A stretch of 64,000 bases of DNA from an uncultured Desulfospira sp. (GTDB lineage: Bacteria; Desulfobacterota; Desulfobacteria; Desulfobacterales; Desulfobacteraceae). The stretch lies in contig OY760175.1 of the NCBI GenBank assembly GCA_963663165.1, positions 704,001 through 768,000 of the forward strand. The letters are read 5' to 3'. Shown here in pieces: positions 13,804 through 34,694 of the stretch. Position 1 is the stretch's first letter, and every line of letters begins with the position of its first letter. The notes under the pieces are model-generated. The model was not told where the DNA came from. It saw only the letters and a program-made list of their open reading frames with translations, and searched no databases. The translations under genes were made by a program, and so were the position numbers.

Positions 13804-13846
13804 AAAAAAACAAAAAAATCCGAACAAGCAGGCTTGTCCGGATTTC
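13804..13846 (-). terminator. Attenuator terminator of riboswitch 2
   Basis: Minus-strand AATCCGGACAAG/CTTGTTCGGATT hairpin followed by TTTTTGTTTTTTT. Confidence 0.72.
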
Positions 13847-13899
13847 CGTTTTTAATCCTTTATTTGGTTAACGCGCCCTTACCCTGGGTACGCCAATTC

Positions 13900-14064: not shown

Positions 14065-14077
14065 CTTATTTGTCTGG

Positions 14078-15587: not shown

Positions 15588-15632
15588 ATTTTTTTAGGCA
15601 TTTTCAAAAGACGAGAACCTATGCGGAAACTT

Positions 15633-16286: not shown

Positions 16287-16460
16287 AATTGTGTCCACCT
16301 TCAAATATTTCGCACGGCGACATTCTATGTAATGCAATAATGCAATAAAAAGCTCATGATAGTAACTGCCTATAGTTGCAGGCAGGACCGTCACACCAAA
16401 AAATTCTGGAAACCGTTTTTCACATAAAAAAAAGACTTTGTCTTGAAAAAGATGCCCCAA

Positions 16461-16494
16461 AGGAAAAGCTGCCGGGTCTCTATGACCCGGCAGC
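16461..16494 (-). terminator. Intrinsic terminator after the dockerin-cohesin gene pair
   Basis: GCTGCCGGGTC/GACCCGGCAGC perfect 11-bp stem followed by TTTTCCT on the minus strand. Confidence 0.78.
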
Positions 16495-16520
16495 CAATAT
16501 CAATCTGTAAACAATCTTGT

Positions 16521-17144: not shown

Positions 17145-17181
17145 TTCATTCTCCTTTATGTAAATTCTGTTATTAAATGGT

Positions 17182-18699: not shown

Positions 18700-18909
18700 C
18701 TTATTAAATCTCCTTATTGAATTATTTTGATTTATCAGCCAGATATTCCTGATGATCACCTCCTTATTTTCCTAATTATTTCTCAGCAGGTTCGTTGCTG
18801 GTTATCCGTCGGATTGAAAATGTCTTAAAAAGCGGTGGTAATTTAGAAAGCACCCCCAACCCGGTCTTTTCCCATTAGACGTCATATATAACGAAGGGAA
18901 AAGAAATAC

Positions 18910-18996: not shown

Positions 18997-19842
18997 TCAC
19001 TGTGACACCCGGCGGCCCTTTCGGTCACTGATTTTTACCTGATTCCGGTAATGGGACGGCAGCATGCCTTCGGATTTATGGAATACCTTTGAAAAATAGG
19101 ACAGATCATTGAATCCCACATGAAAACAGATATCGGTCACGTTCAAATCCGGATTGTTCATCAGGGCCTTGGCCGCTTCCATCCGCCTGGCGTTCAGGTA
19201 GTTTGAAAAGGAAATTCCCATGGTGGATTTAAAGATTCTGGAAAAATACCATTTGCTCATGTGGCACTGTCTGGCCAGATCCTCTATGCCAATGGGTTTT
19301 CTGTAATGTTTATCAATAAATGCCAGGGCGATTTCCAAACTGCGGACCGGATCATTGTCCTGGCCCGGGTCCTGCCCATTGTCCGGAAAACGAATGGCTG
19401 CCGTTAAATGCCGGCCGGTTGAGTCTGACGACGCTTTCCAGAGCCATTGTACCGAAGACAGGGCGGTTTTATAGAAAAAGTTCTGGATAAAGGGATACCG
19501 GTGAATCATGGTTTTAAAATCGTTGATATGCTGAAAGAAAAATACCCCGGGCCGGTTGGCCTTCAGGCAGGTTATGGCAGACCCGCTGATAAAATAATCT
19601 GTGGCACCAAAAAATTCGGCCGCGCCAATGGTTTTAATGGATTCATCGCCATTGGCCGTTTTGATCATGTGATCGGCTGCCCCTGAACTGAGCAGCCCCA
19701 CTGTTTTAATATCCCGGCCCTGATCCTGAAGAATCTGGCCATGTTTGAAGCTGCGGCGGTAAAAGGTTGAACTGATGTTTTCAAGGCTGTGGTTATCTAG
19801 AGCATCAAAACCCGGAATCTGTTTTAAAAGATTTCGTATCAT
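18997..19842 (-). CDS. AraC-family regulator with an N-terminal cNMP-binding-like domain (paralogue 2)
   Basis: LLKQIPGFDALD...GQILQDQG...AEFFG; C-terminal MSKWYFSRIF...VGFNDLSYFSKVF; SD GAGGAG before ATG 19842. Confidence 0.88.
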   Translation of the reverse strand: MIRNLLKQIPGFDALDNHSLENISSTFYRRSFKHGQILQDQGRDIKTVGLLSSGAADHMIKTANGDESIKTIGAAEFFGATDYFISGSAITCLKANRPGVFFFQHINDFKTMIHRYPFIQNFFYKTALSSVQWLWKASSDSTGRHLTAAIRFPDNGQDPGQDNDPVRSLEIALAFIDKHYRKPIGIEDLARQCHMSKWYFSRIFKSTMGISFSNYLNARRMEAAKALMNNPDLNVTDICFHVGFNDLSYFSKVFHKSEGMLPSHYRNQVKISDRKGRRVSQ

Positions 19843-19955
19843 TGTTTTTCTCCTCAAAAGGCCCAATCCGAAAGCGATTGCCTCCTTAGGTTGTTCCTTT
19901 CTCTTCAAAATAGATTGAAGTCCGGCCCGAATCCTCGAGGCCGCCCTTAACTTCT

Positions 19956-20163
19956 AAACCGGGCCAGGTCTTCTGACTTTCAGATCAAGCAAATGGCCGC
20001 GTCTTCCCACCTTTAAGGGACACCTTGTGCCTGCCAGCCTTGATGCAGGCAAAGGCCCCTTTAGGGCAGTGACATGTTGCGGTTTTCTTCTCTGATTACA
20101 GCGGCGGGCCCGTTTCCGATTTTCACGGAATTCCCATTTAACCCATGGCAGGGGGCCCGGTTT
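19956..20163 (-). promoter_or_regulatory. Cobalamin riboswitch 3 (upstream of AraC paralogue 2)
   Basis: Minus strand: AATGGGAATTCCGTGAAAATCGGAA, GGCCCGCCGCTGTAA, GTCACTG...GGGAAGAC, AGTCAGAAGACCTGGCCC; P1 AAACCGGGC/GCCCGGTTT. Confidence 0.93.
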
Positions 20164-20273
20164 TTATTATTTACAAGTTGTTAAAAACTCCTTGGTTCAT
20201 GGCTTGTTTTCCAACAAAAAAATTTGTATTTGTGTTCATCTGCCCACGTGGGCATTTTTTAAGCCTCAGGCCA

Positions 20274-20573
20274 TTAATCATCGTTGTCCTCAGAAGCGTC
20301 ATCATCGCTGTCGCTGCTGTCCTCATCGGAAATGTCATCCAGGTAATTCTCATATATGGCCCGGGCTGCCGTACCGGAAAGCTCTAAAGGCGGCGTGTCA
20401 GCGGGCAGGCCTTCGGGATGAACCGCCTGGGTTTTGATCATGGCCTCAAAGGAGCGGCCGTGATCCGGGGAAAGGGCCTCAGTGGCGCACCCGCCCAACA
20501 GGGCCGTTGAGCCTGTAATGAAAAAAATCAGGGCAATGGTGATCAGGTCAGCGTAAAAGAATCTTTTTTTCAT
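20274..20573 (-). CDS. Small Tad-associated lipoprotein with an acidic tail
   Basis: Lipobox LGGC; DHGRSF...QAVHP motif seen in small tad-locus lipoproteins; overlaps the stop of the TPR gene. Confidence 0.65.
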   Translation of the reverse strand: MKKRFFYADLITIALIFFITGSTALLGGCATEALSPDHGRSFEAMIKTQAVHPEGLPADTPPLELSGTAARAIYENYLDDISDEDSSDSDDDASEDNDD

Positions 20574-21526
20574 GGCTGGTTCTCCAGGGCAGGGCAGGGG
20601 GTTGGATTTGGCACTTCCCGGCTGTCAGTACCGGCCGGATCTTTTATTTTATAGGCGATGGCCGCGGCCTTTTTCCGGTTTTCCATGGCCAGGGCAAAAT
20701 CAGGGTCGGCCTTGACGGCTTTGTCATACATGGAAAGGGCCTGATCAATATGGTTGTTGATGTGATACACATAGCCCTGATTGTTATAGGCCACAGCCTC
20801 GCTGTTGGTGGCTTTAAATGCGGCCAGGGCCTTTTGCTCATTTCCGGCCATGCCGTAGGCAATGCCCAGATTATTGATGGCACGGGCATATCGGGGATCA
20901 ATGGCAATGCTTTTCTTAAAATACCCGATGGCTTCTTCAGGCTGCCCGTTCATGAGGCAGGACACGCCAAAGTTGTTGTAAAAGGCGGCCACGCCCGGAT
21001 CAATCTCAATGGCTCTGGCATAACAGACCCTGGCCTCATCATGGCGGCCCATGGCATCATAGGTCACCCCTAACCCCCCGTGGGCATAGGAAAACCCGGG
21101 GTCTGTTTTCAGGGCCGATTCAAACTGCCGGACCGCCTTGGGGTATTCTTTTTTGCCCCGGTAGCAGACCCCTTTTAAGTAGCAGATTTCCGGGTTATGG
21201 GGATCGGTTTTTTCGGCTTCGTTTAACTGTCCTATGGCCACTTCATAATACTTGTCATGGGTCAGCTGCCGGGCCAGCCCCAGGTAATTGGGAGCCTGGT
21301 TTTTTTCTTTTTTATAGGTCATTTCCTGGAGGGCGGCCTTATCTTCAATGGCCTGTTTTTTCAGTTCATCGCCAATGGTGTCCCGGCCCCCTGAAAAGTA
21401 AGAGGTGCAGGCGGACAACACCAGACAGGCGAGGACCAGGATAAGTTTACCCGGATTTTTTACCAGTGACGTGAATCTGATCCCTGGCCGGGTTGGGTTT
21501 TTTATGTTCATTTGACGTTCCAACAA
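20570..21526 (-). CDS. tadD: TPR lipoprotein, TadD-like pilotin
   Basis: Lipobox LSAC, multiple TPR repeats, position after tadC. Confidence 0.72.
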   Translation of the reverse strand: MLERQMNIKNPTRPGIRFTSLVKNPGKLILVLACLVLSACTSYFSGGRDTIGDELKKQAIEDKAALQEMTYKKEKNQAPNYLGLARQLTHDKYYEVAIGQLNEAEKTDPHNPEICYLKGVCYRGKKEYPKAVRQFESALKTDPGFSYAHGGLGVTYDAMGRHDEARVCYARAIEIDPGVAAFYNNFGVSCLMNGQPEEAIGYFKKSIAIDPRYARAINNLGIAYGMAGNEQKALAAFKATNSEAVAYNNQGYVYHINNHIDQALSMYDKAVKADPDFALAMENRKKAAAIAYKIKDPAGTDSREVPNPTPCPALENQP

Positions 21527-21540
21527 TGTTGTATCCTTTT

Positions 21541-21633
21541 TTATAAGAAAGTATCCCTAACGTCCTGAGAAGACTTTCAATATTTGTTGTGGGCGGTTCT
21601 TGGTTGGATAACCAAGACGGCCCGTGGCCGTTA
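21541..21633. repeat. REP-like two-hairpin repeat, copy 1
   Basis: GAAAG..CTTTC hairpin followed by GTGGGCGGTTCTTGGTTGGATAACCAAGACGGCCC; also at 38937 and 39152. Confidence 0.85.
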
Positions 21634-22545
21634 GTTGATCAATGCGTCCATTAACCGGAGGACCGCAGGACCTAAAATAACGATCATCAGGGACGGCAGT
21701 ACCAGGAACACCAGGGGCAAGGTCAGCTTCACCGCAATTTTAGCCCCTTTTTCCTCGGCAATCTGATGGCGCTCGGTCCGCATGGATTCCGAGTGAATCC
21801 TTAAGGCCCCGGCAATGTCCGTTCCAAACTTTAAAGACTGAAGCACCACCTCCACAAAGGCGTCCAGCCCAGGAGAGTTATTTCTTCGTTTGATATTGCC
21901 CAGGGCCGTGGTCCGGGCCACGCCGCCCCTTGTCTCATAAAAATACTGGGCAAATTCACGGCTTAAAATCGGGGCCACCTGTCTGAGTTCTTTGCTCACC
22001 CTGAGCAGGGCCACCTCAAAGCCTAAACCGGCCTCAATGCACAGCACCATCAGATCCAGGGTATCGGGCAGTTCTCTGAAAATATTTTTTTTCCGTTTTT
22101 TGACCTTTTTTTTCAATACCACCGGCAGCAGGCTGTAAGATACGCTGATGGCAGCAAAGGCCATGGTAATGGAGACCAGGGTGATATTTTCCATCAGGGC
22201 AACGCATAAAAGGGCAAGGGCCAGAACCGTGCCAAAAAGAATCATCCGGATGCCGCAGAACAATTCTAAGGCATGGGCATGCCGGTACCCGGCGCAGGCC
22301 AGGTCCTTTTTTAAGCGGATCTTGTCTTCCCCCTTGGGCAAGGTCTTTTCCCCAATAATCTTAACCCACCGACCCATCCGGCTCATGGACCGGTTCACTT
22401 TTGAGTCAGGGGATTTGCGCTTAAGCCGTTGCCGTATGACCCGGGTCTTTCGGGAATCCTTAACCAGAACCCCAAAGCACAGGCAGACAATGACTAGGGC
22501 CGCAACATTGATGAGAAAGCTGATATCCGTCATAAGCTTAAACAT
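21631..22545 (-). CDS. tadC: Tad inner-membrane platform protein (T2SS F family)
   Basis: ELPDTLDLMVLCIEAGLG, AEEKGAKIAVKLTLPL. Confidence 0.92.
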   Translation of the reverse strand: MFKLMTDISFLINVAALVIVCLCFGVLVKDSRKTRVIRQRLKRKSPDSKVNRSMSRMGRWVKIIGEKTLPKGEDKIRLKKDLACAGYRHAHALELFCGIRMILFGTVLALALLCVALMENITLVSITMAFAAISVSYSLLPVVLKKKVKKRKKNIFRELPDTLDLMVLCIEAGLGFEVALLRVSKELRQVAPILSREFAQYFYETRGGVARTTALGNIKRRNNSPGLDAFVEVVLQSLKFGTDIAGALRIHSESMRTERHQIAEEKGAKIAVKLTLPLVFLVLPSLMIVILGPAVLRLMDALIN

Positions 22546-23494
22546 CCACCTTTGTTAACAGCCGCATCACTAAAAATCCCGTTACATTAAGGACCAGGGC
22601 CGTGATCAGTAAATGCTGCCCCTTGGGGTCATGAAGCAAAATCGACATATATCCCGGGTTGACCAGGTAAATGGCGCCGGAAAAGCCAAAGGGCGCCAAT
22701 CCCAAAAGAAACATGGACAGCCTGCCTTCTGCTGTTATGGCCCGGATCTGCCGGCCTAACTTGAACCGGGAACGCAGGGTGTGGCTTAAGGATTCAAGGA
22801 TCTGGGTTAAATTGCCGCCGGTTTCCTTCTGGATAATAAAAGAGGTGCATAAAAATTTAATTTCCGGAATTTTAGGAAACCGTTTTTCAAAATTTCTTAA
22901 GGCCTGGGCAAAGGCAAGCCCCATGGACAGCTCATCATAAACCAGGCGGATCTCCGTGCTGATGGGCGGCGCCATATTGGTTGAAACCCCGTAAAGGGCC
23001 CGGTCCAGGGACTGCCCGGATTTTAAGGCCCGGACAATAAAATCCATGGTATTGGGCAGCTGGCTGACCATGAGCTGGTTTCGTTTTCTTTTTTTGTGGG
23101 CCACCACCAGAACGGGCAGGGCAAAGCCTGCCACGGCCATGATAACAAACATCAAAAAAGAGCGGGTCATCAGAAAGCCCGCAAGGGAGAAGCCCGCGCC
23201 AAGACCCGATGAAATCAGTAAAAAGGCGTCCAAAGACAGGGCAAGGCCGCTTTGGGCCAACATATCCCCAAGCGTTGATACATCCATTACATGAGAAATC
23301 AGGCGCTCCAGCATGCCGATTTTTCGCTGCCGCTTAAGTTCCAGGCGGCGGATCTGTTTTAAGCTTGGGGCTGTGGCGGCCCGCCGGAGCATGGCCTGCT
23401 TTTTGACGGCCTTTTGATCCAGATAAATATAGTAGCCCCCCATGCACAACAGCCAGACACAGACAAATACCAGAAATGGAATCACATAGGCCAT
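22538..23494 (-). CDS. tadB: Tad inner-membrane platform protein
   Basis: QLPNTMDFIVRALKSGQSL, QKETGGNLTQIL, AITAEGRLS. Confidence 0.92.
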   Translation of the reverse strand: MAYVIPFLVFVCVWLLCMGGYYIYLDQKAVKKQAMLRRAATAPSLKQIRRLELKRQRKIGMLERLISHVMDVSTLGDMLAQSGLALSLDAFLLISSGLGAGFSLAGFLMTRSFLMFVIMAVAGFALPVLVVAHKKRKRNQLMVSQLPNTMDFIVRALKSGQSLDRALYGVSTNMAPPISTEIRLVYDELSMGLAFAQALRNFEKRFPKIPEIKFLCTSFIIQKETGGNLTQILESLSHTLRSRFKLGRQIRAITAEGRLSMFLLGLAPFGFSGAIYLVNPGYMSILLHDPKGQHLLITALVLNVTGFLVMRLLTKVDV

Positions 23495-23497
23495 GGG

Positions 23498-24850
23498 TCA
23501 CCGTCCTGCCGGAATGCAAAAGTTAAACATCTCTTTATCCAGGCGATGGCCGGAACGCCTCAAATGGTCCACAAACCGGGACGGGGTGCCCGTGCTTTTA
23601 AAGCAGCCGTAAATGGTCCCGTCCTCATGAATCCCTTCCTGCTCAAAAACAAAAATATCCTGGAGCTTGATCTGGTTGTTTTCCACGCCCATAACTTCGG
23701 ACAGAGAGATAAATTTACGGGTCCCGTCGGGCAGGCGGGTTAAGTGGACAATCAGATGGATGGCGCTGGCCATGAGTGAGCGCAGGGCATTTTCTGAAAT
23801 GGCCAGGGTGCCCATGCCCACCATGACCTCAAGGCGTGACAGGGCATCTCTGGCCGAATTGGCATGGATGGTGGAAATGGATCCGGGATGGCCTGTGTTC
23901 ATGGCCTGGAGCATGTCCATGGCCTCGGCCCCCCTGACCTCGCCCACAATGATCCGGTCCGGCCGCATCCTCAAGGAGTTGATGACCAGATCCCTTAAAG
24001 AGACCTCGCCTCTGCCCTCTATATTGGCCGGCCGTGATTCAAGCCTGGTCACCTGGGGCTGCTGAAGCTGTAGCTCGGCACTGTCTTCAATGGTGATGAT
24101 TCGTTCGGACTTGGGGATAAAGGTGGACATGGCATTTAAAAAAGTGGTTTTCCCGCTGCCGGTGCCGCCGGAGATCAGGATATTGAGCTTGGTCTGAATG
24201 GCCTTGGAAATAAATTCCACGATCTGGGGAACAATACTGGTGCCGGACAGCAAATCTTTCAAGGTGATGGGCGTGTAACCGAATTTTCGAATGGACAGCT
24301 GGGGCCCGTCAATGGCCAGGGGCGGAATCACCGCATTTACCCTGGAACCGTCGGGAAGCCTGGCATCCACCATGGGGCTTGATTCATCAATCCGCCGGCC
24401 CACGGTGGAGACAATCCGGTCAATAATCTGCATTAGGTGTTCATTGTCCCGGAATTTGATGGCCGTGGGATAAAGGATGCCTTTTTTTTCCACCACCACC
24501 TGGTTGTGGGTGTTCACCAGGATATCCTGGATGGTGTCGTCTTTCAGCAGCGGTTCAATGGGGCCCAACCCTAAAATCTCATCCACCACGTCGGAGACCA
24601 GGGTGTCCAGTTCTTTTCGGTTCAACGGAATGTTTTCAGCGGCGGACACATCAATGGCGACCTCCCTGATCCACTCCCGTAAGGTGTTTTCAGGAATGTC
24701 CTCAATGGTGGAAAAATCAATCACATCAATGAGCCGGGAATGGACCCGGGTCTTGATGGTATGATAGGCTGTAAAATCCAGATTGACCGACGCGGTGAGC
24801 GCCTGGCTCCCGGATGATTGGACCATTCCAAATTTATCAGCTAATTTCAT
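23498..24850 (-). CDS. tadA: Tad pilus motor ATPase CpaF/TadA
   Basis: [52 protein letters not shown]. Confidence 0.96.
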
Positions 24851-24871
24851 TTTAAAAAAATCCCTAATTTT

Positions 24872-24948
24872 TTAGCATTTAGCTATTAGCCGTTAGCGGT
24901 TAGCCGGCAGAACTTTCCCTTATAGGCTAACAGCTAAAAGCTAATAGC
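24872..24948. repeat. Palindromic heptamer repeat, TTAGCnn family (inside the tad operon)
   Basis: TTAGCAT TTAGCTA TTAGCCG TTAGCGG TTAGCCG ... GGCTAA CAGCTAA AAGCTAA TAGCT. Confidence 0.8.
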
Positions 24949-24952
24949 TCTT

Positions 24953-26116
24953 TCAAACAAACCATCCCTTTATCCGCTGTAATACACCCTGTTCTTCGAT
25001 TTCCGGTTCTATGCCCACAAGCTTGCAGGCTAAGGCCTTAATGTCCTTGTTGGCCGGCGACTCATTATGGTCTGCCGATAAAATCCGGCCCTTGTTGATG
25101 GCATCGGTCACGGCATGAAAATCATTGGCAATAACGGCCAGGGCCTTTTGCTCAAAGAGATTTTCAATCTCAGCAAGGGTAATATCGTTGTTCTTTTCAT
25201 ACCGGTTTAAGATAACGGCAAGCTTTTGTGTTTCATATCCAACGCCCCTGAACAGGTCCAGGGTTTCCCTGACCGATCTTAGGGCCGGTACGGTCTGCTG
25301 GGTGACCAGCAGCACCTGGCGGGACAGGTCCATGACCGGGGCGGTCAGATCCGAGAGTTCATGGGGCACATCCACGATGATATAATCCATGTTTTCTTTT
25401 AGAATCTGGAACATCCGGCCAATATCCTCAGCCGTAATCCGGATGGATTTCTCCACTTCTCCCGGTGCCGGCAGCACATAAGGCCCGAAAGGGGACCGGA
25501 CAATGGAAGAAAACAGCAGGTTTTCATCCAGCCGTGGCAGGTCCCTGAGCAGGTCGGTCACCGTATAGGGGTTGTCCACATCCATAAACAGGGCCACATC
25601 CCCGGATTGAAGTTTAAGGTCCACCAAAAGCACTTTTTGCCCGGTCAGGGCCTCAAGGTGGCAGGCCAGGTTGACCGCCAGGGTGGTCACCCCCTGTCCG
25701 CCCTTGTTGCTGGACAGCACAAAGATGTCCCCTTCTTTTTGCCGTTTGGCCTCCTTATCCAGAAGGGCTTTAACCGAATCCCCCGGCTCATCCTGATCCA
25801 GGGGCAACAGGATGTAGTCACAGGCCCCGGCCTTTAAGGAATTTAAAATCAGATCCGGATCTTTGGCATCACTGAGCATGATCACCCGGGTGGCGGGCAT
25901 AAACCGGTCCACCCGCTGGGCAAGCTCAAAACAAGCCTCCGGGTCTTTGCGGACATCCAGGAACAGCACCTTAGGGGCGGCGTCCTTAATCCGGTTATAG
26001 GGGGACGGGGTAATGGCCATGGGCTCCACCTGTGCCATGGACGCCAGCCGGATCTGGACCTCCCGTGACAGAAGGGAATCACTGCTGATGATCATTGATA
26101 ATATTTTATCCGCCAT
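24953..26116 (-). CDS. cpaE: CpaE/TadZ pilus localisation protein (receiver-like plus MinD/ParA-like domain)
   Basis: N-terminal receiver-like domain; KGGQGVTTLAVNLA, VLLVDL; SD GGGAGG before ATG 26116. Confidence 0.9.
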   Translation of the reverse strand: MADKILSMIISSDSLLSREVQIRLASMAQVEPMAITPSPYNRIKDAAPKVLFLDVRKDPEACFELAQRVDRFMPATRVIMLSDAKDPDLILNSLKAGACDYILLPLDQDEPGDSVKALLDKEAKRQKEGDIFVLSSNKGGQGVTTLAVNLACHLEALTGQKVLLVDLKLQSGDVALFMDVDNPYTVTDLLRDLPRLDENLLFSSIVRSPFGPYVLPAPGEVEKSIRITAEDIGRMFQILKENMDYIIVDVPHELSDLTAPVMDLSRQVLLVTQQTVPALRSVRETLDLFRGVGYETQKLAVILNRYEKNNDITLAEIENLFEQKALAVIANDFHAVTDAINKGRILSADHNESPANKDIKALACKLVGIEPEIEEQGVLQRIKGWFV

Positions 26117-26132
26117 GTGGTTATGCCTCCCC

Positions 26133-27647
26133 TTATTCCTCGAACCCGGACGGGCCGGCAAACACCGGTCTGATTTCAGGATTGTCCGGCTTGTTTTTCC
26201 AGATATGGTCCAGAAAGAAAAACTCAAAATCATCCTGTTCAAATACCTCGGTATCCCCGGGAAGGGGCGGGATTTCCCCCGGGTTCATGGGCTTGACCAG
26301 CCGGGGGGTAATCATGATGACCAGTTCGGTTTCTTCCTTGATATACTCTTTGGTTCTGAATGCCGCCCCCACAACGGGCAGATCACCGAGCAAAGGGACT
26401 TTATTGACCGTTGAGCTGATGTTTTCCATGAGAAGGCCGGCAATGGCAAAGGTCTGGCCGTCCTTGAGCATGAGGGTGCTTTCGGCCTCCCGGGTGGTGA
26501 CCCCCGGAACCGTGGCGCCGCCGGAGGTGACCGATGTGGAATAATCCACATCACTGACCCTGGTTTCCACGGTTAAATGGATGGTGTCTTTGGCGATCAC
26601 CGTGGGGCAGAAGGTCAGCTCCACGCCGTATTCCTGATTGCTGACGGTCACACTGCCGTCACTGCCGGAGACAGGAATGGGAAATGATCCCCCCACCAGG
26701 AAACTGGCTTCCTGACCGCTCATGGCCACCAGAGTAGGGCGGGCCTTGACTGTTGCAAGCCCCTGGCTTTTGAGCAGGCTTAAAATCCCGGAAACATCAT
26801 CACTGAGCAAGGTAAATGCCAGTTGGAATGCATTGGCAAAAGGGGTTGCCATGGTAAATTCGGATGTGCTGTCAATACTGATATCGCTGGCGCCCACTGT
26901 TCCGGAAGCATAGTCTTCAATGGTAGACGACTGAGAAGTACCAGAGCTTTTAGAAGTTCCGCTCCAGGTCATGCTCGGTCCGTCCGCCCCGGGGGGCACC
27001 AGGCCGATCCCCAGTTCACTGCCGCTGGAATATCCAAAGATGTTAAGCCCATACCGCTTAATGGCAGACTTGGACACCTCCACAATCTTGGCTTCCAGCT
27101 GAACCTGCTGGGAGCCGGTCACCGTCATCATGTTTTTGATGCTTTCAGGGCTGGCAAAGGCTTCCAGGACCCCGAGCACCCGCTCCATGGTCCTTGTATC
27201 CTCCAGACGGCCGGATACCATAAGCATGCCAAAGGCGCTTTCCACAGTTACCGTTGCCTCGGGGACCAGGGCAGCCAGTTGCCGTTTGATTTCAAAGGTA
27301 TCGTACTTGACGCTGACATGATACACCTGGGTCGACCCGTCCTCATACCATAAAATCAGGTTGGTGGAACCCACACTGGTGGCATTGATCAGGATTTTAT
27401 TCTGGCTTAAGGCCCTGACATCGGCGGTTTCAGGTTTGCCCACAATCACCCGGGAAACGCTGTCCCGGGTATCCAGAACAAAGGACATGCCGGCGGTCAA
27501 TTCCAGACGCTGTGCATCTTTCATGGTCACGCCGTCCAGAACCGGTTCGGCAACCCCTGCCGCCGGAAAACTTAACAAGAACAGCCCGGTACAAAAAAAC
27601 AGCCAAACCGGGCCTGACAAAAACCAATTGTATTTCTTAGGGGTCAT
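26133..27647 (-). CDS. cpaC: Tad secretin CpaC/RcpA
   Basis: N-domain GSTNLILW, QQVQLEAKIVEVS, SGQEASFLVGGSFPIP, KVPLLGDLPVVGAAFR, ETELVIMITPRLV. Confidence 0.95.
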   Translation of the reverse strand: MTPKKYNWFLSGPVWLFFCTGLFLLSFPAAGVAEPVLDGVTMKDAQRLELTAGMSFVLDTRDSVSRVIVGKPETADVRALSQNKILINATSVGSTNLILWYEDGSTQVYHVSVKYDTFEIKRQLAALVPEATVTVESAFGMLMVSGRLEDTRTMERVLGVLEAFASPESIKNMMTVTGSQQVQLEAKIVEVSKSAIKRYGLNIFGYSSGSELGIGLVPPGADGPSMTWSGTSKSSGTSQSSTIEDYASGTVGASDISIDSTSEFTMATPFANAFQLAFTLLSDDVSGILSLLKSQGLATVKARPTLVAMSGQEASFLVGGSFPIPVSGSDGSVTVSNQEYGVELTFCPTVIAKDTIHLTVETRVSDVDYSTSVTSGGATVPGVTTREAESTLMLKDGQTFAIAGLLMENISSTVNKVPLLGDLPVVGAAFRTKEYIKEETELVIMITPRLVKPMNPGEIPPLPGDTEVFEQDDFEFFFLDHIWKNKPDNPEIRPVFAGPSGFEE

Positions 27648-27672
27648 TATTTATCCTTAAACTGATTGCTGC

Positions 27673-28092
27673 TCAGCGGGCATTATAAAGGGAGTTTGAG
27701 GCAGAGGAATTCAGGCCCCTGATCACATCGACCTCCAGTGAGGGCCAGTCCGGCTGCACCACCCGGATTTCCAGAAAGTCTTTGGTTCCGTCTTCGTACC
27801 AGACAATGCACATGGTCGATCCCATTTTCCGGCCGTCAATGACCATTTCATAGGGAGAAATCACCTTGACTTCGGCTATTTCCGTATCATTGATGGAGAT
27901 TATTTTAACCGGGCTTGGCCTTTGGGGGCGAAGCATCTTGATAAAATAAGGACGGGAGTGTTTTTCAGGCACATAAATGGTGGTTGCGGCCAGGGACCGG
28001 CTTTGTCCGGCCCAGGCCGTTGCGCTTATGGTGAAAAGAACAAGAATACCGGCTAACAACAGGTACCCCATGCTCAGCCTGTGGTGTTTCAT
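27673..28092 (-). CDS. Secreted stand-alone pilus-secretin N-terminal-like domain protein
   Basis: Signal peptide; IAEVKVISPYEMVIDGRKMGSTMCIVWYEDG parallels the CpaC N-domain TADVRALSQNKILINATSVGSTNLILWYEDG. Confidence 0.75.
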   Translation of the reverse strand: MKHHRLSMGYLLLAGILVLFTISATAWAGQSRSLAATTIYVPEKHSRPYFIKMLRPQRPSPVKIISINDTEIAEVKVISPYEMVIDGRKMGSTMCIVWYEDGTKDFLEIRVVQPDWPSLEVDVIRGLNSSASNSLYNAR

Positions 28093-28117
28093 GGATGATT
28101 CTCCTGCAAATGGCCCA

Positions 28118-29488
28118 TTAAAAGGCCTCCTTATTGTACCGTTTGGTTTCCTTTTTCATGCCCGGTGTAAACACGGTGATGTCATGATAAGGGGAACTTT
28201 CCTTATAAAATACCCGGCTGCTTTTTTCCCCGCCGGTCTCAACAATATGGTCATCGCCCAGTTTTCTGACGATCAATTTGACATGGTCTGACGTATGGGA
28301 AATCACGGCCAGTTTTTCCGCCTGTTCCGGGGATACCACCAGGGTCACCCGTTTGGTGGACCAGGCGGATGCCCAGGAACCTTCTTCCCACCGGTTTTCC
28401 GGGGCTTGTTCTTTTGTTTCTTTGGCCGGGTCCGGCATATCCTCCCGGGTTGCCAAAGGGGCTCTGATTTCACTGGAAAGCTGGGTATCCTCTTCCACAA
28501 AAAGAATTTCAAGGTTCTGCATCAAAATCTTGGAAACGGTGAATTCGCCGGTCACCATGGCATCGGCTCCCGGCACATTCCGGCCCTGCAAAGCGGTTCC
28601 CTTAAAATCGTGGGTGGCCATTAAATCCACCCGCTGGCCGGGCCGCAGAAAACCGCAGATGCCGTCTTCATCATTGACACGGATGGTAATGGCCCGTTTG
28701 CCCACAGCAATTTTTGACTGGAGTCTTTCGTTGACCTCATCGGCCATTTGTGACAGTTCCTGCCGGGTTTTGGCCCCCAATTGTGCCGAATAAATAACCG
28801 GCTCGCCAACGGCGTTGTTGTCGTCCCGGCTGTCCCTTCTGACCAGCGTCAAAGCGGCATTCTGGGCGGCCGACAGGATACAGGCCTCATTTCTGGTCAA
28901 CACCAGGGCCACCCCCTGATTTGTTTTCCGGCTGCCTTTGGCCCACAGGGACTCTTCTTTCCCATCAGGCTTTGAACCATCGGTATCATGCACCCTGACC
29001 CCGGACAGAATAATCCGGGAGATCCGCCGGCCGTTTTTTGAGCCAAGAGAGCCTGAGGCGATGACATCGACTTTGTCTCCGGGTTCAAGCAGTCCATTGA
29101 GTGCGGCATCCGGCGTGATGCTGATGCGGACCACACACATCCCGGGGGCTATCCCGTCTTCTACGGGCTCCGGGGCCTTGACGAAATCGGGTTTTAAACG
29201 GTTCTGATGAATGGGCTCTCCTAAGTTAAACCCTTTGGCTGCGATCCGCCCTTCAACCGTTGATATGTTGGTGAAAAGCCCTTTGGGAATGACAGGCGAG
29301 GTCCAGGTGATCCGTTTTAGATTAAGGGATGTGAGCGTTTCTCCCGCCTTTATCTGAGTGGCGGCCACCACGACCCGGCGTTTTGGGGCAGGCTTTTTAA
29401 CCATAAACCGGGATGCCAGGTTGGCGGCCAGAAATGCCACCGCCAGTGTACCGACGATTATCAATATGCCTTGTTTTTTAATCAACAA
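28118..29488 (-). CDS. cpaB: CpaB/RcpC paralogue 2 (SAF plus two RcpC domains)
   Basis: VVVAATQIKAGETL SAF domain; two G(L/F)LxPGxxVD motifs (GLLEPGDKVDV, GFLRPGQRVDL). Confidence 0.85.
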   Translation of the reverse strand: MLIKKQGILIIVGTLAVAFLAANLASRFMVKKPAPKRRVVVAATQIKAGETLTSLNLKRITWTSPVIPKGLFTNISTVEGRIAAKGFNLGEPIHQNRLKPDFVKAPEPVEDGIAPGMCVVRISITPDAALNGLLEPGDKVDVIASGSLGSKNGRRISRIILSGVRVHDTDGSKPDGKEESLWAKGSRKTNQGVALVLTRNEACILSAAQNAALTLVRRDSRDDNNAVGEPVIYSAQLGAKTRQELSQMADEVNERLQSKIAVGKRAITIRVNDEDGICGFLRPGQRVDLMATHDFKGTALQGRNVPGADAMVTGEFTVSKILMQNLEILFVEEDTQLSSEIRAPLATREDMPDPAKETKEQAPENRWEEGSWASAWSTKRVTLVVSPEQAEKLAVISHTSDHVKLIVRKLGDDHIVETGGEKSSRVFYKESSPYHDITVFTPGMKKETKRYNKEAF

Positions 29489-30910
29489 TCAGTTCTCCTG
29501 AGTACGATAGGTCTTTGAGGGGGCAGATCCGGTTTTCTGATGGGGCAGCAGATGGTTGGGCTCTGGTTTTTCAGGCAGAAAATCTTCCTGGTCAAAGGTC
29601 ATTCCCCATTCTTTTGATCCGTAATAATACTCTACCGTGTAGTACTGTTTGTCTTTCCAGAACATGTCTGTGAGCTTTTCCCCTCTGGTGTGTACAATGC
29701 CCTGATCTTTTGAGTTTCTGACGATCAATTTAATGTACTGGCTGTTGTAAATGGTAACGAGTTTTTCAGCCACATCCGGAGAAACCAGAAAAGTAACCTG
29801 GCCGATGACACTGCCTTTTTTGGAACCGGCCTGCCGGCTGATTTTTGACCCACCGGCATTGCCGGTGCCCATGGCCGCTTTTTTGTCACTTGAACCGGGC
29901 ATGTCCGATTCCGGTGTCCCGGTGAGAGACTGCACCTCTAAAATTTCAAGGTTCTGCAGGATGATCCGTGCCGTTTTGGATGTATTCAACAAGGTGGCCT
30001 TGGCACCGGGCTGGTCTCCCTGGGATGAAATGTTGCCGGCAAAACTGATGCCCATGACATCCACCCGGTTGCCCGGGCGCAGAAAACCGCAGATACCGTC
30101 GTCATCTTTAAAGCTTAAGGTCATGGCCCGGCGGCCCTTATCCATTCTCAGGTCCCAGCCCTGAATCCTTTCCTGGTCTTTTTGGGCAATGCCGGACCGG
30201 GTGTCGGGACCGTTTTCAAGGGAAAACACCACCGCATCAAGTTCCGGGGCAGGGCGGCCGCCGGTTGGCGTCAGCCTGGACAGGGTTAAGGGGCTTGACC
30301 GGAACAGGGCCAGAATGCGGGCCTGTTCCGGATTAAGGTTAAAGGTGACAATGATTTTTGAGGCCCGGCTTGATTTTCCGGTGCTTTGGGGTGTTCCCAC
30401 GTCCATGACCGTTACACTGGACAGGATGCATCGGGCAACCTGCCGGGTATTTCCCTGGCTCAAAGAATCCTTGGCAATCACATCCACTAGGTCGCCGGGC
30501 TTAAGCATTCCGGCAAGTCCTGAAACGGGATCAACTTCAAGGCTTGCGATCCTCATCCCGGTATCGGACGGGCCAAGCCACTCAATGGGCTCGGGCGTTG
30601 TGGGGGTGCCCGGGGCGCTGAGCCGGGAACCGGTTATGGGCTCTCCGGTGTAAATGTATTCGTTGGCCACACGGCCTTCAAGATCCTTAAGGCCATCAAA
30701 GGTATCTTTGGGCCGGGCCGATTCCGGCCATTGTTGAAGCTGCATATGATGGGCTTCGATCCGGGTGCCGGCCGGGATATCCCGGGCCGCAACAACCAGC
30801 TTAACGTGACGGCCTGACGGCCCTTTGCTCTGCCGGGTTAACAGATTCCCGGCAAGGGCGGCCACGGCCACGGCAGCAATGATGATCACAATGCCACGCA
30901 CTTTAATCAC
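29489..30910 (-). CDS. cpaB: CpaB/RcpC paralogue 1 (SAF plus two RcpC domains)
   Basis: LVVAARDIPAGTRI SAF domain; GMLKPGDLVDV and GFLRPGNRVDV. Confidence 0.85.
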   Translation of the reverse strand: MIKVRGIVIIIAAVAVAALAGNLLTRQSKGPSGRHVKLVVAARDIPAGTRIEAHHMQLQQWPESARPKDTFDGLKDLEGRVANEYIYTGEPITGSRLSAPGTPTTPEPIEWLGPSDTGMRIASLEVDPVSGLAGMLKPGDLVDVIAKDSLSQGNTRQVARCILSSVTVMDVGTPQSTGKSSRASKIIVTFNLNPEQARILALFRSSPLTLSRLTPTGGRPAPELDAVVFSLENGPDTRSGIAQKDQERIQGWDLRMDKGRRAMTLSFKDDDGICGFLRPGNRVDVMGISFAGNISSQGDQPGAKATLLNTSKTARIILQNLEILEVQSLTGTPESDMPGSSDKKAAMGTGNAGGSKISRQAGSKKGSVIGQVTFLVSPDVAEKLVTIYNSQYIKLIVRNSKDQGIVHTRGEKLTDMFWKDKQYYTVEYYYGSKEWGMTFDQEDFLPEKPEPNHLLPHQKTGSAPSKTYRTQEN

Positions 30911-30969
30911 AGCCGGATCCTTTTTTGTTTTGTATGATCAAATTTGCCTTCATTTTAGGGTTTCCCTGT

Positions 30970-31380
30970 TCACGGATACACCGCCACCGATGTGGAAGAA
31001 ACGCGAGACGGTATCATGCCCGCCGGGAAATAGCCGGTCAGTGACTGGTATGGGAAATTGGCCAACTCAAGTTTTGCCCGGTCCGGATCTGACAATTGGT
31101 CAATGCAAAGGTAGGGTTCAAGGGTCGCGGCATCGACTTCCCCGTCCAGGGCCTGAACCATTGCCGACACCGCAATATCTTTGGGGCTTTCATAGCCGCT
31201 TTCCTTGACCACGGCCCTGGTGGCGCAGGCCAGGGCATTGTCCAATGCAATTTTGGTCTTAAAAAACCAGCCGTACTCCACGATGCCCAGAAGAAAGGTC
31301 ATCAGCAGGGGCAATACCAGTGCAAACTCAATGGCGGAAACCCCTTTTTCACATGTCAGCCTGATGTTCATTTTTTTCAT
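30970..31380 (-). CDS. TadE-like pseudopilin
   Basis: G|VSAIEFALVLPLLMTFLLGIVEYG. Confidence 0.9.
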   Translation of the reverse strand: MKKMNIRLTCEKGVSAIEFALVLPLLMTFLLGIVEYGWFFKTKIALDNALACATRAVVKESGYESPKDIAVSAMVQALDGEVDAATLEPYLCIDQLSDPDRAKLELANFPYQSLTGYFPAGMIPSRVSSTSVAVYP

Positions 31381-31450
31381 TTTTCTTTAAACGGTTAAGG
31401 GCGTTAATTCATATGGCCTTTCATTCTTGTGTCATTTCCCGCCGGGTCCT

Positions 31451-31903
31451 TTAAGGAAAGGAAAAAACCGCCCGGCTGTGAAGCCTTTTGGGCACAAAGG
31501 CTTGGGGAAGAAACCCGACCAGCGGGGTATAGGCATAGTTTTCAATGGTGACAATAATCCGTCTGGGAAGGGGAGGCCCCTGGTCCTCGCCGGCGGCCTG
31601 GATCTCAACATCAATGTTGTCATCAGACAGGGTCCCAATGATATCAAAAGTGTCCTTGACCGAATCTCTGGCCCTGGACTCAATTTCGCCGGGGGGTTCA
31701 TCGGGCATCCGGAGCGCCGTCCGTGCCCCCTTTGCCACGGCATGGGAGAGCAGAATCTGGGAGGTCATGACCCACCCATATTCGATAATCCCCATGAAAA
31801 TGGCAAAAAAGAACGGCATGACCAGGGCAAACTCCACCGCGGAGGTTCCCCCCTCGTTTTTGCCCCTGACACCGGATTTTGAATATGGCCAATGCCTAAT
31901 CAT
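31451..31903 (-). CDS. TadE-like pseudopilin
   Basis: G|TSAVEFALVMPFFFAIFMGIIEYG...AVAKGARTA. Confidence 0.9.
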   Translation of the reverse strand: MIRHWPYSKSGVRGKNEGGTSAVEFALVMPFFFAIFMGIIEYGWVMTSQILLSHAVAKGARTALRMPDEPPGEIESRARDSVKDTFDIIGTLSDDNIDVEIQAAGEDQGPPLPRRIIVTIENYAYTPLVGFLPQAFVPKRLHSRAVFSFP

Positions 31904-31926
31904 ATCGTCAGCCGTGAAACATCAGG

Positions 31927-32433
31927 TTAAATCACCGGCCCTGCCGTCAAATAACAGCAGAACCCCATCGCCATAGCGGCGGCATAGGGGACCCCCCGGC
32001 GTTTAAGTTGGCCGGGCAGGGTCTTAAGCAAGGTGGACGGAAACCATAAAATATTGACCGTCTGCCAGGGGCCTGAAGCCGTTACAATCAGAATCAGGGC
32101 CCAGATTCCCCCGGCAATGGAGCCGTAAAGGAACAGGTTGACCACACCGGAAACGCCCAAAAAACTGCCTGAAGCCGCCAGCAGTTTCACATCTCCGCCG
32201 CCGGCATACCGCAGCAGAAAGGGGATCATCAGCAATAATAACCCGGTTCCCATTCCTTTAAACGCGTACAGGCAGCCCCATTCCAGACCGCTGGTTGCGG
32301 CATGGTATCCCAAGCCTGCCAGACAGGCCGGAACAGTCAAATAATTGGGAATCCGCCGGAATCTTAAATCAAAGACAGCGGATATCCCGAATAAGAGGCT
32401 GCACATCAAAATGGCCGGCATCGGTTGCATCAT
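31927..32433 (-). CDS. cpaA: Prepilin peptidase (A24), CpaA/TadV
   Basis: DLRFRRIPNYL and GGGDVKL catalytic Asp motifs, VPYAAAM. Confidence 0.92.
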   Translation of the reverse strand: MMQPMPAILMCSLLFGISAVFDLRFRRIPNYLTVPACLAGLGYHAATSGLEWGCLYAFKGMGTGLLLLMIPFLLRYAGGGDVKLLAASGSFLGVSGVVNLFLYGSIAGGIWALILIVTASGPWQTVNILWFPSTLLKTLPGQLKRRGVPYAAAMAMGFCCYLTAGPVI

Positions 32434-32462: not shown

Positions 32463-32651
32463 CTATGGTTCCTCGGTGGTGTCTTCCCCGTTCAGGCCGT
32501 CAACGATTTCCTGGAATTTGTCATTAATGGTCTCTCCTAAGGTTGAGACAACCGTAACAATAGCCAGGGCAATGCCGGCGGCCATTAATGCATATTCCAC
32601 TGCTGATATCCCTGAATCATCTTTCCATAACTCTTTTAATCTTTGAATCAT
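32463..32651 (-). CDS. flp: Flp major pilin
   Basis: Flp motif G|ISAVEYALM followed by a hydrophobic helix; SD AAAGGAG. Confidence 0.95.
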   Translation of the reverse strand: MIQRLKELWKDDSGISAVEYALMAAGIALAIVTVVSTLGETINDKFQEIVDGLNGEDTTEEP

Positions 32652-32782
32652 GATGCTCCTTTGGTGTTCTGTCGGCTTCTTTTACCGGGTCTTTCCCTTG
32701 GGGCCCGCCCTAGTAACGGTCTCTTTACAGCCCTGAAAATAAAGGCCTGCTGGCGGTTAAGTTCAGGGGCTTGGGATGGGCC

Positions 32783-32823
32783 AAAAAAAAATCCCAGACC
32801 AAAATACTGCTTTGATCTGGGAT
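32783..32823 (-). terminator. Attenuator terminator of riboswitch 4
   Basis: Minus-strand ATCCCAGATCAAA/TTTGGTCTGGGAT hairpin followed by a run of T, located between the aptamer and flp. Confidence 0.8.
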
Positions 32824-32893
32824 GTCCCCTTTTTATCCGCAAATTCTTTATGTGACCTGTATCCTATGAAGCCGCAAGAATACATTGTCTGAT

Positions 32894-33080
32894 CAAACGG
32901 GCAGGTCTTCTGACTTCCCTCCCTTCATGCGGCCTTCCCATCCCAAGATTCTGGTGGAACAGTGGCACAATAAATTGCTGAAGAGTTCCTGTTAAAATAA
33001 CAGGCAAGGGTCACAGCAGCGGGCCTGTCTTCGATTTTCACGAAGTTCCCTATTAAGCTTAATTTGCAAGCACCCATTCG
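32894..33080 (-). promoter_or_regulatory. Cobalamin riboswitch 4 (upstream of the flp/tad operon)
   Basis: Minus strand: GGGTGC, TAATAGGGAACTTCGTGAAAATCGAAG, GGCCCGCTGCTGTGA, GCCACTG...GGGAAGGC, AGTCAGAAGACCTGCCC; TTGACT at 33109-33114 upstream. Confidence 0.94.
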
Positions 33081-33221
33081 GCTGCAATGAACCAAAAATC
33101 TTCAAAAAAGTCAATTTTTTTCTTAACTTTTTGGAACTATGACGGTGTGCAACCCTATAAATTAGGATTATTTTGCTGTGTGGAAAACGGGGGAAAGCAG
33201 ATAAAATGGGGGAAGACCCGG

Positions 33222-34289
33222 TTATTTAACCGGGGGGTTGATGTCGAATTCGCTCATTTTGTAGAGCAGGGTTTTGTAGCTGATCTTTAGAATTTTGGCG
33301 GCCTTGGAGCGGTTCCAGCCCACCTTGTCCAAAACAAAGACAATGACTTCCTTTTCTACCCGGTTGGCGGCCATTTTTTTGATTTTTTTAAGGGAGATGT
33401 CCTGGAACAGTTTTTCAGAACTGGTGGACAAATCAACGAACTGGGAGATGATGGTTACCGATTCAGTGCTGAATTCTCCGGTATCGGTATCCGACTTTTT
33501 GCCCTTGTTTGGTTTTACAACATTTTTCGGGACTTCTGTACCGTCCTTGGGAAGCTCATTGAATATCTTCTCCCAGGAGTTCATCACCATCTGCTTTTTA
33601 ATGCAGTTTTGAAGCTGGCGTACATTTCCCGGCCAGGAATACCGGCACAGTTTTTCCATAATGTCTGTATCTGGTTTGGCCCCGTTGTTTTCAGGGTATT
33701 CAGATTTAAATTTCCGGTAATAGTACTCAACCAGGGCAGGGATGTCTTCTTTGCGTTCCCGTAACGGGGGGATGTCGATTTTGATAATGTTCAGCCGGTA
33801 AAAAAGATCTTCCCGGAATTGCTTTTGTTTGATCCGCTCTTCAAGGTTATGGTTGGTGGCGGCAATGACCCATACATCGGTTTTAAACTCCTGGTCTGAT
33901 CCGAGGGGGGAGAATTCACCGCTTTGCAGGACATGGAGCATTTTGGACTGAAGGGCTATGGGCATGTCCCCGATTTCATCCAGGAAAAGCACGCCTTTGT
34001 TGGCGGTCTGAAATTTGCCGGGCCGTTTTCTGTGGGCACCGGTAAATGCCCCCCTTTCGTATCCGTACAATTCACTTTCAAGAAGGGTTTCCGGCAGGGC
34101 CGCACAATTTATTTTCACAAAATTGCGGGAAGATCTGGTGGACTCGGCGTACAGGTTTTGGGCGACCACCTCCTTGCCGACACCGGTTTCACCGGTGATG
34201 AGGACGTTAAGGCAGGTGTGCGCCACATGGTTGATCAATTCCTTGATCTTTAACATTGATTGACTTACGCCGATTAGAGGTGTGCTCAT
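33222..34289 (-). CDS. Sigma54-dependent activator (AAA+ and Fis HTH, no N-terminal sensor)
   Basis: GETGVGKE, GAFTGA, LFLDEI, WPGNVRQL, WNRSKAAKILKISYKTL. Confidence 0.92.
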   Translation of the reverse strand: MSTPLIGVSQSMLKIKELINHVAHTCLNVLITGETGVGKEVVAQNLYAESTRSSRNFVKINCAALPETLLESELYGYERGAFTGAHRKRPGKFQTANKGVLFLDEIGDMPIALQSKMLHVLQSGEFSPLGSDQEFKTDVWVIAATNHNLEERIKQKQFREDLFYRLNIIKIDIPPLRERKEDIPALVEYYYRKFKSEYPENNGAKPDTDIMEKLCRYSWPGNVRQLQNCIKKQMVMNSWEKIFNELPKDGTEVPKNVVKPNKGKKSDTDTGEFSTESVTIISQFVDLSTSSEKLFQDISLKKIKKMAANRVEKEVIVFVLDKVGWNRSKAAKILKISYKTLLYKMSEFDINPPVK

Positions 34290-34310: not shown

Positions 34311-34694
34311 CTACTTCTTTTCCTTGTTTAACAGCTTGGCAACTTTTTCTTCGATGTCAAACAAATCTATAGGCTTAAACAATACCAAGTCAGCTTCCGC
34401 TTCAGAGGCAAGGGCACCGGGGTGGTCTCCATAACCGGTCATGGCAATAATTTTAATTCCCGGGCATTCTTTTTTTGCAATGGAAATAAGACCGACCCCG
34501 CTGATATTCGGCATAACCAGATCCGTTATCAGGCAATGAAATACTTTGGGTTTCTCCTTTAAAATTTTTAATGCGGCAAGACCGTCAATGGCAGTTTTGA
34601 CTTCGTACCCCATTGAATTGAAAAATTCGTAAAAGGTAGACAGGATGTCTTCGTTGTCATCAACTATCAAAAGTCGCAGAGGATTTTCCGGCAT
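34311..34694 (-). CDS. Stand-alone response regulator receiver
   Basis: LLIVDD, ITDLVMP, MTG, FKP. Confidence 0.92.
   Translation of the reverse strand: MPENPLRLLIVDDNEDILSTFYEFFNSMGYEVKTAIDGLAALKILKEKPKVFHCLITDLVMPNISGVGLISIAKKECPGIKIIAMTGYGDHPGALASEAEADLVLFKPIDLFDIEEKVAKLLNKEKK

Follow-up and report, generated by a model that had tools for sequence, protein, structure and literature searches.

The flp-tad operon and its leader

The DNA analyzed here is a stretch of 64,000 nucleotides (nt) from an uncultured Desulfospira sp., a bacterium of the sulfate-reducer type (contig OY760175.1, positions 704,001 to 768,000), referred to below as the window, and our subject is a cobalamin riboswitch that lies on its minus strand in the leader of the pilin gene flp and of the tad operon that follows. 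The flp gene (32463-32651, minus strand) encodes a protein of 62 amino acids that matches Pfam Flp_Fap (PF04964, E 3.7e-16) and contains G/ISAVEY, which we take to be a processing-type motif. Thirteen tad genes, co-oriented with flp and assigned with Pfam, occupy positions 20274-32433. They comprise tadV, coding for a prepilin peptidase of the TadV/CpaA type (31927-32433; PF01478, E 2.5e-16), a secretin of the RcpA/CpaC type (26133-27647; E 1.5e-45), the TadA/CpaF ATPase (23498-24850; T2SSE, E 4e-64), the platform proteins TadB and TadC (T2SSF, found twice), TadZ/CpaE (a ParA-like ATPase with a REC-like N terminus), two TadE proteins, two RcpC (CpaB) proteins, a pilN-domain protein, a TadD-like TPR protein, and a 99-residue protein without a family. 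The gaps between the genes of the operon do not exceed approximately 104 nt, and promoter-like and terminator-like sites inside it showed no excess over shuffled sequences. Judged by its predicted products, the window locus has a complete gene set for a Tad/Flp (type IVc) pilus, which is an adhesive pilus. A TadG-like gene (14142-15587, minus strand; PF13400) lies in the next transcription unit, outside the 14-gene operon.

The leader of the operon was analyzed with an Rfam covariance scan, in which the gathering score of the cobalamin riboswitch family RF00174 is 31.5 bits. The minus strand gave a full-length match at 32883-33092 (84.6 bits, E 2e-19, model positions 1-189 of 189). As seen in the cmscan alignment, this aptamer contains the B12 box GCCACUG (32966-32960) and both conserved core strands, GGGAA and AGxCAGxAGACCUGCC, and its peripheral helices depart from the consensus in having a 22-nt insertion and several pairs that are non-canonical. 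Directly 3' of the aptamer, folding of sub-sequences gave a 7-bp hairpin with the loop UUGCGGCUUCAUA (32857-32883, minus strand), possibly a P13-like element, a role that we infer. Farther downstream, the terminator scan called an intrinsic terminator at 32783-32823 (minus strand), composed of a 14-pair hairpin (32823-32791), with a folding energy of -20.7 kcal/mol, and U8 (32790-32783); the left arm of this hairpin lies approximately 60 nt past the aptamer end. A 131-nt spacer (32652-32782) with the ribosome-binding site (RBS) AAAGGAG leads from the T-run to flp. Upstream of the aptamer, TTGACT (33114-33109, minus strand) was read from the sequence as a candidate -35 hexamer, and the sole -10 at 17-nt spacing from it is TTCATT (33091-33086), which is weak. 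The preliminary description of this stretch had placed a B12 aptamer at 32894-33080, which sits within the Rfam match, and a hairpin with a T-run at 32783-32823, now resolved into 14 pairs and T8 by the terminator scan; the flp gene and the 13 co-oriented tad genes that it had traced down to 20274 were all confirmed by Pfam. A candidate anti-terminator, in which the B12-box/P6 segment (32964-32938) would pair with the terminator left arm at -16 to -19 kcal/mol, could not be distinguished from shuffles.

The same leader is found in a same-genus genome (G001, locus L001), which was aligned to the window segment by segment. Identity was 70.4% in the intergenic DNA upstream of the -35 hexamer, 95.5% from the -35 hexamer to the aptamer start (33114-33093), 95.8% in the aptamer, and 96.0% from the platform through the T-run, the 7-bp hairpin included; in the terminator, 41 of 42 alignment columns are the same. 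Identity was 72.3% in the spacer from the T-run to the RBS, 94.2% in the flp coding sequence, and 58.7% in the flp-tadV gap. The aptamer and the terminator are kept like coding sequence, and the spacer before flp drifts like neutral DNA. This selective conservation, together with the Rfam E-value, excludes a chance origin of the aptamer. A recent duplication was likewise rejected as its source, since it is at most 59% identical to the 23 other aptamers compared.

Riboswitches upstream of flp across Desulfobacterota

A Flp gene was found in 7 of 61 genomes of relatives, a patchy distribution. In a sample of the phylum, Pfam Flp matches occurred in 57 of 401 evenly drawn genomes, and the 2 kb upstream were taken for 80 of 82 Flp loci, from 54 other genomes, two genomes with sub-threshold matches having been dropped and some of the upstream regions being shortened by contig ends. 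As a control, an aptamer profile built without the aptamers of the window genome recovered all four riboswitches of the window. Scanning of the 80 regions with an aptamer profile yielded one Flp locus with a direct riboswitch and one that is reached via a regulator. In the latter (locus L110/L171, genome G439), the order is riboswitch, regulator, and flp-tad.

The direct case (locus L107/L170, genome G065) belongs to a different family. There, RF00174 matches at 13-204 with 78.6 bits, a strong terminator follows whose T-run ends at 289, and flp starts with an ATG at 323. Since no more than 33 nt lie between the T-run and the start codon of flp, a promoter of flp's own is hardly possible in this locus. 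The tad gene order is that of the window, and the window aptamer is 55% identical to the L170 aptamer. A segment of L170 that lies between its aptamer and its terminator is predicted to pair with the left arm of the terminator at -18.0 kcal/mol, a value that none of 300 shuffles matched, and an anti-terminator is plausible there from these predicted pairings.

Riboswitch-gated regulators and the neighbouring surface-protein genes

The genome (6.74 Mb, one contig) contains eight RF00174 matches, four of them inside the window. The second of these (19946-20174, minus strand; 98.4 bits) heads a regulator gene at 18997-19908. A perfect palindrome, TGCCCACGTGGGCA, was observed between the last tad gene and this riboswitch (20241-20254); on the minus strand an A-run precedes this palindrome and no T-run follows, so that transcription of tad may continue into the second riboswitch. 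The third (13888-14075, minus strand; 110.2 bits) heads a regulator gene within 13000-13827 and follows the same plan as the flp leader with clearer signals: a promoter-like TTGACA-17-TATGGT (14106-14078, minus strand) stands before it, and a terminator (13847-13814, minus strand) lies between the aptamer and the regulator gene. Both regulators combine a domain resembling those that bind cyclic nucleoside monophosphates (cNMP) with an AraC helix-turn-helix (HTH) domain (Pfam); PocR is the best NCBIfam match of both, below threshold and in the HTH region only.

Similar arrangements were seen elsewhere. In two other genera of the family, a B12 riboswitch precedes a cNMP/AraC regulator of approximately 300 residues that adjoins flp; in one (L005) this regulator lies immediately before flp and shares its strand, and in the other (L003) it is divergent from flp. 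The alignment of the window regulators was then used as a probe, with one genome per species. Full-length matches made up 12 of the 80 loci returned, all in Desulfobacterota, and 8 of these 12 were in genomes new to the analysis; in all eight, RF00174 lies directly upstream of the regulator. The tad genes follow the regulator on the same strand in loci L012, L013, L014, and L171, are divergent from it in L010, L018, and L026, and are convergent with it in L015; L011 and L031 showed no tad genes within 8 kb of the regulator. In the control, comprising 65 generic AraC loci (927 kb), the aptamer was found in three, two on Desulfobacteraceae contigs and one on a Bacteroidia contig, and in none of the Paenibacillus, Cohnella, or Rhizobium loci. 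On the Bacteroidia contig (L033), the aptamer lies upstream of a partial regulator match. Overall, a riboswitch-gated regulator rather than a direct riboswitch is, as far as predicted from these loci, the usual link to flp-tad in other genera. Approximately 190 nt part the regulator gene from the flp gene that follows it in L013 and L014, and a conserved inverted repeat of the type GGATTCC-N5-GGAATCC lies in this gap, just upstream of flp (approximately 8929-8953 in L013 and 8925-8950 in L014); it could serve as an operator or form an RNA hairpin.

Four accessory genes (14142-18759, minus strand) follow the second riboswitch and its regulator. They encode a beta-propeller protein of 505-525 residues with a TSP3/dockerin tail (17182-18759; Pfam, structure model, and Foldseek), a cohesin-like protein of 207 residues with a VPLPA/PEP-CTERM-type tail (16521-17144; Pfam, NCBIfam, and a structure-atlas cluster), a 275-residue open reading frame (ORF) without a family (15633-16460), and the TadG-like protein. 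The propeller model, with a predicted local distance difference test (pLDDT) value of 88, is six-bladed and of the NHL/SMP30/sGDH kind, with Z of 20-25 (Foldseek, VIA-align). A BtuG-like B12 binder was considered for this protein and found unsupported, the best 50 Foldseek and VIA-align matches containing only generic six-bladed propellers. At least 25 full-length homologues of the propeller protein exist, all of them unnamed, and the 207-residue protein has only one homologue besides itself. Homologues of the propeller and PEP-CTERM proteins occur in loci L003, L005, L016, L017, and L171.

The dockerin of the propeller protein is indicated by Pfam (E 8.8e-07) and by the dockerin/TSP3 matches of its PDB sequence profile. 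The cohesin of the 207-residue protein is weak in Pfam (E 0.054), and its atlas cluster has Cohesin on 61% of its members, with a score of 0.97. Prediction of a cohesin-dockerin complex gave a score of 0.45, against 0.01 for the best of three controls, with a contact agreement between runs of at least 82% and a partner pLDDT of at least 58. Of 157 solved complexes, 116 reached the mark set for such predictions, as did 2 of 215 mismatched pairs; at scores of 0.60 or below, it was reached by only 18 of those 157 complexes plus both passing mismatches. The prediction thus lends weak support to a pairing of the two neighbouring proteins, and since a like complex has been solved, the pass may reflect that likeness.

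DUF4465, a B12-binding domain described in BtuJ1 and BtuJ2 of Bacteroides in the part of the source used here (PMC13398666), was not detected in the five accessory proteins of the window by Pfam at relaxed E-values. Sister loci L005 and L016 encode it. In L016, homologues of the accessory proteins follow a DUF4465 gene that lies behind two AdoCbl (adenosylcobalamin) aptamers and one cyclic di-GMP (c-di-GMP-I) aptamer, downstream of a riboswitch-gated regulator; in L005, a DUF4465 gene is a neighbour of the tad locus and has a c-di-GMP-I riboswitch in front of it. The c-di-GMP-I riboswitches of the sister loci (L016 8864-9818, L017 8886-9366 and 12779-13156, L005 3085-3164, and L019 8371-8444) precede genes for DUF4465, PEP-CTERM, and large surface proteins, and in L016 and L017 they occur in tandem with AdoCbl aptamers. 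The DUF4465 protein of the window genome (L089) has 275 residues, a signal peptide, and a VPVP...RRR tail like that of the 207-residue protein. One C-terminal sorting tail is common to DUF4465 and PEP-CTERM-type proteins, this single DUF4465 protein included.

The fourth riboswitch (7037-7238, plus strand; 99 bits) heads a B12 operon that reaches to 12899 and encodes, by Pfam, a CbiZ-BtuF fusion, a BtuF-like protein, a BtuC-like protein (FecCD), an ABC ATPase, and CbiK. A riboswitch-led B12 ABC transporter flanks the module in L018 as well. The fusion (ORF 7368-9437, plus strand, 689 residues) joins Peripla_BP_2 to CbiZ, an adenosylcobinamide amidohydrolase, and lies ahead of the second BtuF-like gene; it suggests that cobamide remodelling is tied to uptake. 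The four riboswitches outside the window precede canonical B12 genes, namely corrin methylases with CbiG and CobO, TonB receptors with ExbB, and ThiC-family with CobT genes. Just upstream of the B12/tad block, at 3660-5749, lie two tRNA genes and, after them, a Uma2-family gene and an integrase of phage type. Together with the patchy presence of Flp among relatives, these integrase and tRNA genes hint that the block may lie on or near a mobile island.

Proposed attenuation of the pilus operon and comparison with known systems

The sequences at this locus make it likely that the flp-tad leader is an AdoCbl-type (class-I) riboswitch acting by transcription attenuation, and that the Tad pilus module is repressed by B12. 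Transcription would start probably near 33080-33090. With a corrinoid coenzyme in the aptamer, the 14-bp hairpin and U8 would form, the polymerase would stop at approximately 32783, and flp and the 13 tad genes would be off; when corrinoid is scarce, read-through would allow the Tad pilus machine to be expressed. The OFF direction is suggested by the position of the terminator, which lies wholly outside the aptamer, and by the genes that the same aptamer family heads in this genome, which serve biosynthesis and uptake and are of the kind that AdoCbl, by established rule, represses (Vitreschak 2003; Nahvi 2004; both cited in PMC545781). The flp switch would be one arm of a larger B12-starvation circuit, in which two further B12 riboswitches of the same 20-kb block would each control a regulator of the AraC family with a cNMP domain, one of the two regulators heading the surface-protein operon (propeller/dockerin, cohesin-like PEP-CTERM, and TadG-like proteins). 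Because a riboswitch-gated regulator adjoins flp-tad in other Desulfobacterota, low B12 likely turns on regulator and pilus alike, and the regulators may act on the tad and accessory genes. A surface response to B12 starvation appears to be the most economical reading of these gene arrangements.

Several observations weigh against this interpretation. The sigma-70 scan called no promoter at TTGACT, which is weak by consensus; the hexamer given in the preliminary description is confirmed, and a promoter there is a weak candidate. The minimum-energy fold of the whole leader retains the terminator, and the best upstream pairing of the terminator left arm (-19.1 kcal/mol) was equalled by 118 of 300 dinucleotide shuffles; read-through in the ligand-free state is therefore assumed. 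The 131-nt spacer is roomy enough for an unrecognised promoter, and a sigma-54 activator gene lies nearby upstream. Direct wiring of a riboswitch to flp is rare, the 80 sampled Flp loci giving one direct case and one through the regulator. The genome contains anaerobic B12 biosynthesis genes and is therefore not an obvious auxotroph. No known B12-binding domain was found in the tad or accessory block of the window, and the sole DUF4465 gene of the genome (C1:3159284-3160111, minus strand; domain at 3159374-3159916) is 2.4 Mb away, with no riboswitch near it in 6 kb at E 0.01. The proposal of termination by cobalamin, already made in the preliminary description, thus draws on the aptamer, the strong terminator, a spacer in which no promoter was detected, and the design of L170, while for the anti-terminator in the window shuffled sequences often paired as well.

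The alternative that survives best, which we nonetheless regard as unlikely, is that flp-tad has its own promoter in the spacer, and that the riboswitch and its terminator mostly make a short stand-alone RNA or only trim read-through from the regulator genes upstream; activation might then come from the AraC-type regulators or the neighbouring sigma-54 activator, and control by B12 would be indirect or absent. Riboswitch-terminated regulatory RNAs are known in Listeria and Enterococcus. Room for such a promoter exists at 32782-32652, and a gene for a sigma-54 AAA+/HTH_8 activator (33222-34289, minus strand; Pfam) ends 130 nt upstream of the aptamer. The gap of approximately 190 nt between regulator and flp in L013 and L014 could also hold a regulated promoter. 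A weak match to a sigma-54 promoter, TGGCCC-N5-AAGC at 32783-32768 (7 of 12), is the sole GG-N10-GC match in 32600-33300; its GC dinucleotide is gone in G001, and a sigma-54 promoter after the terminator was rejected as chance. Moreover, no minus-strand sigma-70-like site turned up in the promoter scan from the T-run to flp, where a separate constitutive promoter driving the operon would have contradicted the preliminary description, and the spacer has diverged as neutral intergenic DNA (72.3%) rather than being conserved. In L170, the T-run is only 33 nt from the flp start. As a separate observation, the activator gene and a REC-only gene (34311-34694, minus strand; Pfam) are in the same frame, parted by one TAG and 21 nt; the split is also present in G001 and so marks a conserved two-gene NtrC-like regulator and not a fresh break.

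It is less probable still that the aptamer is an ON switch, or that it senses a corrinoid other than AdoCbl (with another lower ligand, or cobinamide), so that the pilus would be made when this compound is present. This would accommodate the window's lack of a switching helix distinguishable from shuffles, the deviating peripheral helices with their non-canonical pairs and 22-nt insertion, and the occurrence in the genome of CbiZ and two CobT-type genes, which suggest cobamide remodelling. However, the terminator left arm, approximately 60 nt past the aptamer, would not be sequestered by a ligand-bound P1, and genes of biosynthesis and uptake stand behind the genome's other aptamers of this family, OFF being the rule for these according to the material cited in PMC545781. 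OFF behavior has also been predicted for AdoCbl riboswitches with terminators in Desulfobacca, in the part of that study considered here (Sherlock 2022, PMC9481103). Finally, it is very improbable that the arrangement is a functionless accident, the product of a riboswitch copy or relic inserted before flp in this genus. Direct riboswitch-flp wiring in two lineages only (the window genome, G000, with G001, and G065), the patchy Flp genes (7 of 61 relatives), and the integrase and tRNA genes hinting at mobility would fit such an origin. Against it, aptamer and terminator have kept the degree of conservation of coding sequence amid drifting flanks, the aptamer is at most 59% identical to any other examined and so is no recent copy, the design has arisen or been retained in a second family (L170), and at least eight other loci link a riboswitch-gated regulator to flp-tad.

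What the B12-repressed pilus would be for is less certain. It might serve to acquire corrinoids, with the cell attaching to their sources or displaying or exporting capture proteins, and we hold this tentatively, as something short of an even chance. The preliminary description had proposed such a role; the adjoining btuFCD/cbiZ/cbiK operon and the DUF4465 genes of the sister loci favor it circumstantially, whereas the tad block of the window has no known corrinoid binder. A more specific proposal, that the Tad machine and the riboswitch-gated accessory proteins (the propeller with its dockerin tail, the cohesin-like PEP-CTERM protein as an anchor, and, in sister genomes, DUF4465 binders of B12) form a corrinoid-foraging organelle, is rather doubtful. 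In such an organelle, B12 starvation would act through three riboswitches and two cNMP/AraC regulators to switch on the pilus, which would tether the cell to corrinoid-producing partners or particles; alternatively, the machine might work as a type II secretion-like piston that exports or displays corrinoid-capture proteins. If true, the proposal would add a new way of acquiring a vitamin and, for Tad pili in anaerobic sediments, a new physiological role.

Cobalamin riboswitches are signposts of B12-related genes. The pilus machine, the regulator family, and the unannotated surface proteins are thus candidate members of the B12 economy in anaerobic sediments, in whose communities growth is shaped by cobamide cross-feeding. 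Tad pili would gain a defined and easily manipulated input, cobamide added or withheld, by which the functions of the pilus subtype and of the propeller homologues become directly testable. The locus would also be a natural multi-riboswitch circuit, combining direct attenuation with riboswitch-gated regulators, of interest for the layering of RNA switches and protein regulators.

Compared with known systems, the leader shares with the canonical AdoCbl riboswitches of cob/cbi and btu operons the RF00174 family, the B12 box, the downstream terminator, and a presumed OFF logic; it differs in its target, a 14-gene Flp/Tad operon with no known role in B12 metabolism. B12 riboswitches also feed regulators through non-coding RNAs in Listeria (an antisense RNA to PocR, an AraC-family protein) and in Enterococcus (EutX/EutVW). 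There, too, a cobalamin riboswitch feeds a transcription regulator and not an enzyme or transporter, whereas in the window the riboswitch lies in the regulator's own leader, the regulator has a cNMP-binding-like domain, and its neighbour is a pilus locus. In Clostridioides difficile, a c-di-GMP riboswitch with a terminator lies in the leader of a type IV pilin operon and has ON logic. It likewise controls pilus production by a riboswitch and terminator in a pilin operon leader, but with a second messenger as ligand, ON logic, and a type IVa-like pilus instead of a Tad pilus.

Closer in phylogeny, Desulfobacca acetoxidans has seven riboswitches (AdoCbl, c-di-GMP-I, and cyclic AMP-GMP) within 7 kb, its AdoCbl aptamers each having their own terminator, and the authors speculate on a link between pili and coenzyme B12 (Sherlock 2022, PMC9481103; this and what follows refer to the portion of the paper used here). 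This series belongs to the same phylum, and its tandem layout of AdoCbl and c-di-GMP-I aptamers is also found in L016 and L017, whereas the window has no c-di-GMP riboswitch at the gathering score. The pili considered in that portion are conductive pili, and it names no flp-tad operon, regulator, or surface proteins (PMC9481103). In Bacteroides, B12 limitation induces riboswitch-led surface capture loci, in which btuB is accompanied by BtuG, BtuH, and BtuJ/DUF4465, as far as the cited part of the study describes them (PMC13398666). DUF4465 is shared with L005, L016, and, once, the window genome, but no DUF4465, BtuG, or BtuH relative was detected in the tad and accessory block of the window. 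Anchoring differs as well, with PEP-CTERM-type tails in place of lipoproteins, and the module of the window includes a Tad pilus machine.

The literature search found no work that connects flp, Tad, or tight-adherence pili with a cobalamin riboswitch, the speculation in Sherlock 2022 being the only approach to it. The aptamer is a regular member of RF00174 and the operon is a regular Tad locus; their pairing, together with the riboswitch-gated regulator family, is unusual, pointing to an as yet undescribed link between B12 shortage and pilus production.

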